From Escherichia coli (GTDB taxonomy: Bacteria > Pseudomonadota > Gammaproteobacteria > Enterobacterales > Enterobacteriaceae), in NCBI RefSeq assembly GCF_048403405.1, contig NZ_CP183129.1: a DNA stretch of 64,000 nt, one strand, 5' to 3'. A program made the position numbers and the translations under genes. The notes below the pieces were generated by a model. It saw nothing but the letters and a program-made list of their open reading frames with translations, was not told where the DNA came from and searched no databases. Positions 21,789-25,115 of the stretch are shown in pieces. Within the stretch, counting starts at the first letter, position 1. Each line of letters starts with the position of its first letter.

Positions 21789-22565
21789 ATGCTGATTCTT
21801 ATTTCACCTGCGAAAACGCTCGATTACCAAAGCCCGTTGCCCACCACGCGCTATACGCTGCCGGAGCTGTTAGACAATTCCCAGCAGTTGATCCATGAAG
21901 CGCGGAAACTGACGCCTCCGCAGATTAGCACGCTGATGCGCATCAGCGACAAACTGGCGGGTATCAACGCCGCTCGCTTTCATGACTGGCAGCCAGATTT
22001 CACGCCGGAGAATGCCCGCCAGGCGATTCTGGCGTTTAAAGGTGATGTCTACACCGGCTTGCAGGCCGAAACCTTCAGCGAAGACGATTTCGATTTTGCC
22101 CAACAGCATTTGCGAATGCTTTCCGGCTTGTATGGCGTACTGCGCCCGCTCGATTTAATGCAGCCTTATCGTCTGGAAATGGGGATCCGTCTTGAGAATG
22201 CCCGAGGGAAAGATCTGTATCAATTCTGGGGAGATATCATCACCAACAAGCTGAACGAGGCGCTCGCAGCACAAGGCGATAATGTGGTGATTAATCTGGC
22301 GTCAGATGAGTATTTTAAATCGGTGAAGCCGAAGAAATTGAATGCCGAGATTATCAAGCCGGTGTTCCTCGATGAGAAGAACGGCAAATTTAAGATCATC
22401 AGCTTCTACGCTAAGAAAGCACGCGGTCTGATGAGTCGTTTCATTATTGAAAATCGGCTGACCAAACCAGAGCAACTGACTGGTTTTAATAGCGAAGGTT
22501 ACTTCTTTGATGAAGCTTCCTCCAGCAATGGCGAACTGGTGTTTAAACGCTACGAGCAGCGTTAA
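21789..22565 (+). CDS. yaaA: peroxide stress protein YaaA (UPF0246)
   Basis: 258 aa [17 protein letters not shown]... Confidence 0.9.
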
Positions 22566-22575
22566 GTTTGTAGTC

Positions 22576-22599
22576 AATGCCGGATGGCAATCCGGCATT
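22576..22599. terminator. hairpin between convergent yaaA and yaaX
   Basis: aatgccgga-tggcaa-tccggcatt perfect 9-bp stem in the 39-bp gap between the two stop codons. Confidence 0.5.
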
Positions 22600-22604
22600 G
22601 ATAT

Positions 22605-22901
22605 TTAGCGATGATGTTTGTCAGGCCCCGGACGATGATCGCCACGATGATCATTGTGCTTGTTATGGCGCGGCGATGGCGGCGGTCCATATGGGTGCCA
22701 GCGATTGCCTCGCCATTCATAATGTTGTTTCCACCAGCCGTGGTCGCGCCAGTGACCGCCATCCCAGTAATAGCCACGATTATCACGATCGCCTATCTGT
22801 AATTTTACTGACGGGACTAGCGTAATTTCCGCAGCCTGCGCTGCCATGGGAGCGACCAGAACCAGGGAAAGTGCGAGTACGATAGATTGCATCTTTTTCA
22901 C
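22605..22901 (-). CDS. yaaX: DUF2502 secreted repetitive His/Arg/Trp-rich protein
   Basis: 98 aa with signal peptide [23 protein letters not shown]; conserved neighbour of the thr operon. Confidence 0.8.
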
Positions 22902-23059
22902 AGGTTACTCCTTTTATCATTGCCCGTTATGGGTCGATATCCGGAGATTACGCGATGAGAACGGCAGTTGTTATTCTCCGCAATCCTAATCTCTAAGTTA
23001 CCGCATTTATTGAGAATTTCTCCTTTTTCCCTGTCGTTTTTCTCCATATTTTCTTCATA

Positions 23060-23770
23060 ATAAATATCCTCCGGCATAGCCGGAGGTTTTTCAAATGCGC
23101 CTATAAGGCTCTCTTACCAGCCGCGCCCTAACAGGCGCACACGATCTGACATTTGCATCCAACTTCGTTACTTACGGCCCGTAAACGGGCTGCCCGGATA
23201 GGGAATCGATAACTGCTCTCCCATTTTATCCTCTTCAAGCTGGTGCTTTATGTAATCCTGTATCTTCGCCGTGTTCTTACCCACCGTATCGACGTAGTAC
23301 CCTCTGCACCAGAACTCCCTGTTCCTGTATTTGAATTTCAAATCACCAAACTGCTCGTAAAGCATCAGACTGCTTTTCCCTTTCAGATATCCCATAAAGC
23401 CGGATACGCTCATTTTGGGCGGGATCTCCACAAGCATATGGATATGATCTGCACAGCATTCAGCTTCCAGAATCCGTACACTTTTCCACTCACACAGCTT
23501 TCTCAAAATACTGCCTATTGCTCTACGCTTCTCTCTGTAGAACACCTGTCTTCGGTATTTTGGCGCAAAAACTATGTGATATTTACAGTTCCATCGGGTG
23601 TGCGCTAAGCTCTTTTCGTTCCCCATTGGGACCCCCTTTTGATTTCTTGTTTGACACTTGCAGTTGCCAGACCGCAAGGTGTTTTAACAAATCAAAAGGG
23701 GTTTTAATAACTGGCTTAAAGCTGAAAGCTTTCCGGAACCCCCAGCCTAGCTGGGGGTTTTCTGTGCACA
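23060..23770 (-). mobile_element. IS200-like insertion sequence (IS200/IS605 family), ends approximate
   Basis: Single HUH/Y1 transposase gene preceded by long RBS-sequestering inverted repeat (23634-23702) and terminal palindrome cccccagc-cta-gctggggg; yaaX-thrC gap is ~710 bp longer than I recall for K-12. Confidence 0.65.
23168..23626 (-). CDS. tnpA: IS200-type transposase TnpA (Y1 HUH)
   Basis: 152-aa MGNEKSLAHTRWNCKYHIVFAPKYRR...HIHMLVEIPP... (HUH motif) within track ORF 23168..23677. Confidence 0.85.
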   Translation of the reverse strand: MGNEKSLAHTRWNCKYHIVFAPKYRRQVFYREKRRAIGSILRKLCEWKSVRILEAECCADHIHMLVEIPPKMSVSGFMGYLKGKSSLMLYEQFGDLKFKYRNREFWCRGYYVDTVGKNTAKIQDYIKHQLEEDKMGEQLSIPYPGSPFTGRK

Positions 23771-23771
23771 A

Positions 23772-23806
23772 CAAAAAAGCCGGGCTGCATAAAAGCAAAC
23801 CCGGCC
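23772..23806 (-). terminator. rho-independent terminator of the thr operon
   Basis: Minus strand: gccggg...cccggc stem followed by T6, ~25 bp after thrC stop. Confidence 0.7.
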
Positions 23807-23828: not shown

Positions 23829-25115
23829 TTACTGATGATTCATCATCAATTTACGCAACGCAGCAAAATCGGCGGGCAGGTTATGCGAAAGCAAGGGTAA
23901 ATCAGCACGTTCTGCCAGCTCTTTTGGCAGATCCAACGTTTCACCGAGAATCGCTTCCACGCTCTCTTTAAATTTCGCCGGATGCGCGGTGCCGAGGAAC
24001 AAGCCATATTCGCCTGGATTCAACTGGTCACGCAGCGCACGATACGCTACGGCAGCGTGCGGCTCCGAGGTGTAGCCCAGTTCTTTTAACTCACGCATTG
24101 TCTGTTGCGTGGTTTCATCATCCACGGCTGCATAACCCAGCTCTTTCAGTTGCCAGATTTTGCGGCGGAACAACTCTTCCACACGCGGCCAGTTGTTCGG
24201 CTGACTCACGTCCATCGCGTTGGATAACGTCGCCTGAGTCGCTTTGGGTGACCACTGACCGTCATGCAGGAAACGTGGCACGGTATCGTTCACGTTGGTC
24301 GCAGCAATAAAACGTTTCACCGGCAGACCGAGTGACTTCGCCAGCAGACCCGCCGTCAAATCGCCGAAGTTACCGCTTGGTACCGAGACAACCAGCTGGT
24401 TGCGCGCCTCCTGCGGCAGCTGCGCAACAGCTTCAAAGTAGTAGCAAATCTGCGCCAGCAAACGGCTGATGTTAATCGAGTTAGCTGAGTTTAACCCCAG
24501 CGCCACTTTCAGTTCTTCATCATCAAACGCCTGCTTCACCAGCGCCTGACAGGCATCGAAATCGCCGTCGATGGCAACAGTTTCAATATTGCCGCCCAAT
24601 GTACAGAACAGTTTTTCTTGCAGTGGACTGATTTTGCCTCGTGGATAGAGGATAACCACTTTCACATTCGGCAAACCGTAGAAAGCATGAGCCACTGCCG
24701 CTCCGGTATCACCGGAGGTCGCGGTCAGAATGGTCACTGGCTTATCGCCCGCAATATGGGTCAGCATTTGTGCCATAAAGCGACCGCCGAAATCTTTAAA
24801 TGCCAGCGTTGGCCCGTGGAACAACTCCAGACAACCGACATCGCTTTCAACATTGGCGACCGGAGCCGGGAAGGCAAACGCCGCGCGTACGCGCTCTTCC
24901 AGGATTTCCTGCGGGATTTCATCACCAATAAACGCCGAGAGGATCTTCGCACTGCGGGTGACAAAATCCAGCTTCAGCATCTCATCAATTTCAGTCAGGC
25001 TGAATTCCGGCAGGTCGTGCGGGAAAAACAGCCCCTGATTTTTGCCCAACCCCTGGGTTACGGCTTGCGCAAAGCTGACCTGCTCATTGTGATCTTTCAG
25101 ATTGTAGAGTTTCAT
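23829..25115 (-). CDS. thrC: threonine synthase
   Basis: 428 aa MKLYNLKDHNEQVSFAQAVTQGL... Confidence 0.97.
   Translation of the reverse strand: MKLYNLKDHNEQVSFAQAVTQGLGKNQGLFFPHDLPEFSLTEIDEMLKLDFVTRSAKILSAFIGDEIPQEILEERVRAAFAFPAPVANVESDVGCLELFHGPTLAFKDFGGRFMAQMLTHIAGDKPVTILTATSGDTGAAVAHAFYGLPNVKVVILYPRGKISPLQEKLFCTLGGNIETVAIDGDFDACQALVKQAFDDEELKVALGLNSANSINISRLLAQICYYFEAVAQLPQEARNQLVVSVPSGNFGDLTAGLLAKSLGLPVKRFIAATNVNDTVPRFLHDGQWSPKATQATLSNAMDVSQPNNWPRVEELFRRKIWQLKELGYAAVDDETTQQTMRELKELGYTSEPHAAVAYRALRDQLNPGEYGLFLGTAHPAKFKESVEAILGETLDLPKELAERADLPLLSHNLPADFAALRKLMMNHQ

Follow-up and report, generated by a model that had tools for sequence, protein, structure and literature searches.

The feature at 22605..22901 on the minus strand of the window (the whole 64,000-nucleotide stretch of Escherichia coli DNA that we analyzed) is yaaX, a real, expressed E. 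coli core gene that is present here as a B2-type allele. Taking its identity and its architecture together, we are highly confident of the assignment: an exported precursor with a folded, strongly constrained core and a hypervariable His-rich tail. As the best explanation overall, including the periplasmic model described below, we favor a two-part exported protein of the Rcs envelope-stress response, a reading that we consider reasonably probable. Its family, export signal and regulation are already on record, as is the gene itself, and nothing reported here is new in kind. However long it has been known (yaaX has been annotated in E. coli since the first genome sequence), it is among the most strongly induced uncharacterised members of the Rcs envelope-stress response, and the split between core and tail gives two cleanly separable hypotheses for experiment.

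The coding sequence, delimited by the ORF list and its translation, Pfam and RefSeq, consists of 98 codons and a TAA stop, and it begins with GTG. Its translation contains exactly the peptide that had been quoted in the first-pass annotation, read from the minus strand, and the gene name given there was right, as judged by the locus, the Pfam DUF2502 match and the match to K-12 yaaX. The RefSeq annotation of the identical DNA calls the product WP_000738734.1, 'DUF2502 domain-containing protein', and the Pfam family DUF2502 (PF10697) matches residues 25–72 with E=4.5e-14 (52.9 bits against a gathering threshold of 27). The NCBI pipeline (PGAP) uses the name yaaX only for the K-12-type allele and leaves the window-type WP_000738734.1 nameless, even though it is the positional orthologue. 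A Shine-Dalgarno sequence, AAGGAG (22908..22913, minus), lies 7 nucleotides 5′ of the GTG, and AAGGAGT at this site is invariant in eight genera or alleles.

On the thr side, yaaX is flanked by thrC (23829..25115, minus), and on the other side by the convergent yaaA (21789..22565, plus), followed by yaaJ; given this gene order, the window runs backward through the beginning of the E. coli chromosome map. The order thrC-yaaX-yaaA(-)-yaaJ(-) was kept in all six of the other taxa fetched, the orthologous loci compared being those of Salmonella, Enterobacter, Citrobacter, E. marmotae, Kosakonia and Buttiauxella. Its position between thrC and yaaA, together with its identity to K-12 yaaX, places the gene in the YaaX orthologous group (E. 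coli b0005). With yaaA, the next gene downstream, running convergently, a role for yaaX as a regulatory leader peptide was rejected. Among 5,426 complete E. coli genomes, yaaX was present at ≥80% coverage in 5,424, with the window-type allele (≥95% identity) in ~1,390 and the K-12 type in ~4,035. A 1.5-kb query around the gene was 100% identical in five complete E. coli genomes, and yaaX alone was 100% identical to the allele of E. coli Nissle 1917; nucleotide identity to K-12-type alleles was 90.8–91%.

The first 23 codons (22833..22901, minus) encode a typical Sec signal, with MKKMQ at the N terminus, a hydrophobic stretch and the sequence A-Q-A/A-E, in which cleavage by signal peptidase I is predicted after A-Q-A. 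Our YaaX alignments took in 18, 48 and 52 homologues. The A-x-A cleavage site was kept in 18 of 18 aligned homologues, with P18 and A23 invariant, and in the paralogue YpeC the predicted cleavage falls in the same alignment register (A-N-A/G). Because YaaX has no Cys, it has no lipobox. The 98-amino-acid precursor is thus predicted to yield, after Sec export, a soluble mature protein of ~75 amino acids, and the signal peptide proposed in the first-pass annotation is well founded.

The compositional bias that had been pointed out is likewise real. The 75 mature residues include 10 His, 9 Arg, 9 Gly, 8 Pro, 7 Asp and 6 Trp, and relative to the long ORFs of the window His is enriched 5.6-fold (P=1e-5), Trp 7-fold (P=2e-4) and Pro 2.6-fold, with Arg and Gly enriched only 1.6–1.9-fold (P=0.05–0.1). 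Aliphatic, Phe and Cys residues make up 9% of the mature protein, compared with 40% in the window's other long ORFs. The description of the product as 'highly repetitive' was overstated: Tandem Repeats Finder reported no tandem repeat at a score ≥30 in the yaaX DNA, and within the protein the only duplication, of YxWxGxxW, is weak. The top-scoring protein repeat (12 versus 12 residues) scored 38, compared with 29.7 ± 5.6 for shuffles, and was equaled in 10% of composition-preserving shuffles, which makes it marginal.

The DUF2502 core (codons 25–69; 22695..22829, minus), marked by invariant columns, low dN and pLDDT >90, comprises about 46 residues rich in Trp, Tyr, Arg, Asp and Gly. It combines a hairpin motif at the N terminus with a complete YxWDGxxWRDxxWW module and with YEWRGNRW, a degenerate second copy of the module. 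An alignment of 48 sequences had 18 invariant columns in the core, with the consensus E..L.P...LQIG..D..G..WDG..WR....W...Y.W....W. Across the orthologous loci, dS in the ungapped 46-codon core was saturated (0.9 to >2.5) and dN was ~0.07–0.19, such that every computable dN/dS value was ≤0.13, indicating strong purifying selection and placing the core among the best-conserved parts of the locus. With a 52-sequence alignment as input, AlphaFold2 modeled the core with block pLDDT means of 93, 94 and 92, so the Trp/Arg/Gly-rich part of the protein, which supplies most of the motif on which the first-pass annotation had based its suggestion of disorder, is predicted to be folded instead. In the model, HGWWKQH forms a helix, YEWR/RWHP forms a hairpin and beta bridges are also present; overall, the core is confidently predicted to combine a hairpin with beta-bridged loops and a short helix, WWxxH.

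No relative was found in the PDB by either sequence or fold, with the PDB profile search returning one chance match to an antibody CDR (E=0.73). When the core profile was searched against 1.84 billion representative proteins, only 106 matched at E≤0.001, all of them DUF2502 proteins. The named relatives were from Enterobacterales (Pantoea, Brenneria, Serratia, Rouxiella and others), with a few others from Jeongeupia, Deefgea and one gammaproteobacterial metagenome bin. DUF2502 is almost wholly confined to Enterobacterales, which is the clade that owns the Rcs system. Many of the relatives have two full IGDRDxRGYYWDGxxWRDxxWW modules, which correspond to the whole 90-position Pfam profile. YaaX is not a full-length two-module member: it covers only positions 1–60 of the 90, whereas distant DUF2502 members cover positions 2–86, and its second module is reduced to YEWRGNRW, which in a joint alignment falls on the YYWDGxRW of the second module in the two-module relatives. 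Judged from these alignments, YaaX and YpeC are a shortened DUF2502 subtype with one and a half modules, and the YaaX core derives from a tandemly duplicated YxWDGxxWRDxxWW module. A two-module relative was modeled with a mean pLDDT of 87 and a pTM of 0.71, and in it the bridge-bridge-helix pattern occurs twice. A comparison of family members also suggests that the C-terminal appendages of the DUF2502 core are interchangeable. Five DUF2502 proteins end in the Cys-containing sequence CPPGQAKKG(R/N)C and have no His-rich tail.

The tail (codons 70–98; 22608..22694, minus) is a hypervariable segment of His, Asp, Arg, Pro and Gly, delimited by its composition and its pLDDT values, with a PPP motif at codons 73–75 (22677..22685, minus). 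Its 29 residues could not be aligned between genera, and AlphaFold2 gave pLDDT values <50 for the last 20 residues of the protein (mature residues 56–75). Over 52 orthologues, the tails averaged 28% His, 20% Asp, 15% Arg, 11% Gly and 8% Pro, with aliphatic residues essentially nil, and the median tail contained 30% His and 24% Asp/Glu; the window allele has 7 His among its 29 tail residues. The first-pass annotation had suggested an intrinsically disordered protein and a disorder prediction as the check. With AlphaFold2 pLDDT as that prediction, the suggestion holds for the C-terminal 29 residues (pLDDT <50, unalignable) and fails for the core (pLDDT >90, dN/dS ≤0.13), so YaaX as a whole does not classify as an intrinsically disordered protein.

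Within E. coli the two parts of the gene have diverged very differently. Relative to K-12, codons 1–69 have three synonymous changes and no amino-acid difference (0/69), whereas codons 70–98 have 14 differences among 29 amino acids. In the best gapped alignment, dS was 0.51 and dN 0.20 in the tail, compared with 0.069 and 0 in the upstream codons, a seven-fold higher synonymous divergence in the tail. The divergent block (22566..22694) starts sharply at codon 70 and runs into the spacer between yaaX and yaaA, and on either side of it yaaA and thrC are 98–99% identical to K-12. Because dS is also raised in the tail, and because the block extends into the spacer, the segment seems to be old or imported rather than the product of relaxed selection alone, and the break at codon 70 looks like a recombination breakpoint or the edge of an old allelic segment. 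Other E. coli yaaX clusters have mosaic tails with Pro runs of 3 to 7 residues, and this variation in run length suggests slippage. The spacer itself differs in that K-12 has ~110 extra REP-like bases, whereas the window has a single 12-bp hairpin. This G+C-rich hairpin (22574..22601, unstranded) lies between the convergent yaaX and yaaA stops, its predicted RNA fold has a free energy of -19.1 kcal/mol (z=-6.0), and no shuffle was as stable; it is probably a terminator shared by the two genes.

Published expression data for yaaX concern the K-12 allele, not the window allele. For K-12, Bury-Mone et al. include yaaX in their table of the RcsB regulon (PMC2731931), colicin M induces it (log2 4.12) in a study that groups it with Rcs-regulated genes (PMC3599342), and a LolCDE inhibitor raises its expression 8- to 12-fold in another that annotates it as induced by RpoS stress (PMC5105897). 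A Serratia DUF2502 homologue has a promoter whose induction by several logs in a gumB mutant depends on rcsB (PMC8470065). For the paralogue ypeC, MarA/SoxS rather than Rcs is the reported regulator (PMC5684230). A weak link to metals comes from cusS mutants, in which yaaX changes alongside zraP and cus genes (PMC10920338). A proline-related ribosome pause in yaaX was detected by two methods in K-12 (PMC13410324). As to the polyproline criterion for EF-P, the window allele keeps PPP, with Ser replacing the fourth Pro of the K-12 PPPPP, and the pause is reported for K-12 only.

About 125 bp 5′ of the yaaX start are strikingly conserved from Escherichia to Buttiauxella (8 orthologous upstream regions), despite saturated synonymous sites; positions 22943..23025 are nearly invariant across at least six genera, and the 157 bp upstream of the gene have only 4 differences from K-12. 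Three near-invariant blocks, all on the minus strand, are candidate control elements: AAGGAGAAATTCTCAATAAATGCGG (23001..23025), TTAGAGATTAGGATTGCGGAGAATAACAAC (22967..22996) and CGTAATCTCC (22943..22952). These conserved blocks argue for conserved regulation. The consensus of the RcsB homodimer box is TN(G/A)GAN4TC(T/C)NA (PMC7913699), and no canonical box was found at ≤1 mismatch in any of the 8 orthologous upstream regions, or near yaaX in the window. Only half-site-like sequences, TTAGA/TAGGA, and the palindrome AGAAATTCT, with a 3-nucleotide spacing that is one base short, were found upstream of yaaX. With no canonical box at what is a textbook example of an Rcs-induced gene, Rcs control may be indirect or may act through a non-canonical site, and an RcsB heterodimer or a non-canonical site at yaaX is possible. 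In the GAD box, the left half reportedly looks like an RcsB half-site (PMC2887963).

An IS200C element of ~710 bp (23059..23772, minus; tnpA at 23168..23626, minus) interrupts the T-run that belongs to the terminator of the thr operon. It lies ~157 bp 5′ of the yaaX start and has the same orientation as thrC and yaaX. It occurs at this site in only 8 of the 5,426 complete E. coli genomes, and it sits upstream of all conserved yaaX promoter blocks. The end of the element proximal to yaaX has an 8-bp G+C hairpin (23068..23086) that was flagged as terminator-like on both strands. Within the element, directly 5′ of tnpA, the Rfam family STnc490, an Hfq-binding RNA, has a full-length match (23636..23759, minus; 146 bits against a gathering score of 56).

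The function that we propose for YaaX is tentative. According to the literature on K-12 and the Serratia homologue, transcription is induced through the Rcs phosphorelay when peptidoglycan, the sorting of lipoproteins or the outer membrane is damaged. In our working model, YaaX would then accumulate in the periplasm under envelope stress, where its folded aromatic and charged core would dock on an envelope component; alternatively, the Trp, Tyr, Arg and Asp residues of the core may merely form the fold, replacing an aliphatic interior. The flexible His/Asp tail would reversibly bind divalent metals (Zn, Ni, Cu) or protons and thereby provide buffering near the envelope. Such buffering of metals or protons by the tail is, to judge from its composition, possible rather than probable. 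Metal binding would plausibly fit a tail that keeps a median of 30% His and 24% Asp/Glu while its sequence drifts, and its composition is that expected of His-rich metal-binding segments, a class that is functional and not based on homology; a His-rich low-complexity tail can also be neutral filler. Searches of NCBIfam and the PDB found no homology of YaaX, in sequence or in fold, to ZraP, Spy, CusF, CpxP or any other characterised periplasmic binder or chaperone, and the NCBIfam matches were sub-threshold and covered the YaaX signal peptide only, among them those to Spy (E=0.14) and Phr. Gene neighborhoods of distant homologues were rejected as too weak a guide to function: the co-directional neighbors of one distant DUF2502 homologue encode uncharacterised small lipoproteins, with sub-threshold BamE/OsmE matches, and a bufferin/ECF-sigma cluster lies near but on the other strand.

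A broader proposal, about which we are somewhat more doubtful than about the working model, is that DUF2502 would be a structurally new mini-domain that originated by module duplication and uses Trp/Tyr-Arg-Asp packing in place of an aliphatic core. Its members would be Rcs- or Mar-induced periplasmic factors that combine a core contacting the envelope with a His/Asp tail that binds metals or protons and is under selection for its composition, and this tail would be reshuffled within species by recombination and slippage.

The alternative to the working model that survives best, although we think it unlikely, places the activity in the core alone, which would bind peptidoglycan, LPS, colanic acid, anionic lipid or unfolded envelope proteins, with the tail serving as a solubility or charge appendage that has no role with metals. 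Within the Rcs regulon, yaaX is co-induced with capsule genes and with spy, ivy, ymgD and osmB, which encode small periplasmic stress proteins, and the putative operon of the distant homologue, with its small lipoproteins and one sub-threshold BamE/OsmE-like match, also fits a protein that works at the envelope. Clusters of Trp, Arg and Asp are moreover typical of sugar- and anion-binding surfaces. Nonetheless, YaaX resembles no carbohydrate-binding or chaperone family, and its Trp residues may instead be buried as the structural core of an aliphatic-poor domain. Confining the function to the core would also leave the ~30% His found in every tail unexplained.

It is improbable that, as a literal reading of the first-pass annotation would have it, the mature protein is intrinsically disordered throughout and lacks a folded domain, acting as a His-rich sponge for metals. 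The low aliphatic content (only 9%), the low-complexity look of the sequence and the lack of a PDB relative would all be expected of such a protein, but 18 positions of the core do not vary among 48 sequences, its dN/dS values are ≤0.13 with dS saturated, and its pLDDT is >90 in two independent AlphaFold models. Exact Trp, Gly and Asp positions are kept across genera, which is unusual for disorder, whereas the true tail drifts freely. A further possibility, with perhaps slightly less to recommend it, is that the tail does not bind metals but is a pH-responsive polyampholyte that acts like the acid-shock protein Asr; its charge and interactions would switch once His is protonated at a low pH in the periplasm. 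The ~30% His of the tail and its balance of Asp and Arg would suit such a switch, as would the presence of ypeC in a table of genes induced by rapid acid shift (PMC2270276) and the ties of Rcs and RcsB/GadE to acid resistance (PMC2887963). However, the literature searched contained neither an acid phenotype nor acid induction of yaaX itself, and YaaX has no homology to Asr.

Three other ORFs overlap yaaX, at 22574..22786 (minus, 70 amino acids), 22577..22825 (plus, 82 amino acids) and 22611..22802 (plus, 63 amino acids), and all three are spurious. Three alternative frames over the gene are open for 62, 65 and 72 codons. These same frames are open for ≥60 codons in nearly all of 8 orthologues, the exception being the -0 frame of K-12 (35 codons), and three alternative frames are open for ≥60 codons in ~10% of equal-sized pieces from the window's other long ORFs; the openness at yaaX is therefore a real effect but not an extreme one. 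The frames stay open because codons for His, Arg, Trp, Gly, Asp and Pro (CAY, CGN, TGG, GGN, GAY and CCN) rarely create stops in three other frames, and their openness in nearly all orthologues fits the prediction of such a composition effect. Across 7 orthologues, amino-acid identity was ~0.5 in the open alternative frames compared with 0.78 in the yaaX frame, and with products conserved at only ~50%, compared with 78% for YaaX, the overlapping ORFs were rejected as real genes; the first-pass annotation had already read them as spurious by-products of composition, and this was borne out. The notion that the yaaX frame was mis-called and that an antisense, overlapping or frameshifted ORF is the true gene is almost certainly wrong, since, for all that alternative frames are open for 62–72 codons and frameshifted versions of similar length exist in public assemblies, those frames conserve only ~50% of their residues, the Pfam match, signal peptide, conserved ribosome-binding site and start codon all fall in the yaaX frame, and the notion is refuted by the dN/dS of the core together with the nucleotide identity by codon position in the yaaX frame (0.85, 0.90 and 0.56 at positions 1, 2 and 3, 7 orthologues), which is lowest at the third position. 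Seven public protein clusters represent frameshifted yaaX that reads on in an open alternative frame (...RRHRRATIRKLLMIITAVMVQANITAK) to a near-normal length. These calls could be sequencing errors or pseudogenes, and by length they could pass for intact.

Among known proteins, the closest counterpart is K-12 YaaX (b0005, WP_000738719.1), another 98-amino-acid DUF2502 protein encoded at the same thrC/yaaA locus and identical over residues 1–69. It differs from the window protein in the tail, where there are two compensating 2-codon indels (PPPSP in the window and PPPPP in K-12, and an 11-residue stretch in the window corresponding to HDHHGGHGPG in K-12). The E. coli paralogue YpeC, also a DUF2502 protein, has the same cleavage register and core motif and is 48% identical overall; unlike YaaX, it has a longer Arg/Gly/Tyr/Trp-rich tail that ends in GHGHRH. 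In E. coli, ypeC is convergent to mntH, the gene for a Mn/Fe importer of the Nramp type, and Rouxiella-like contigs have a two-module DUF2502 gene at the same position, beside Nramp and nupC, which indicates that this adjacency is old.

The two-module DUF2502 proteins of Brenneria, Serratia, Rouxiella, Pantoea, Jeongeupia and Deefgea share with YaaX a signal peptide, an IxIxxPGVxLxIG hairpin motif, the YYWDGxxWRDxxWW module and a low-complexity tail of His, Gly, Pro and Asp. They differ in having two full modules, and some end in CPPGQAKKGxC, a motif that YaaX lacks. Beyond the family, ZraP, Spy and Asr are small, Sec-exported proteins with charged or His-rich flexible regions that are induced by envelope, metal or acid stress. 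YaaX has no detectable sequence relation to these proteins and differs from them in its predicted secondary structure and in its regulator (Rcs), but by analogy it could work in a similar way.
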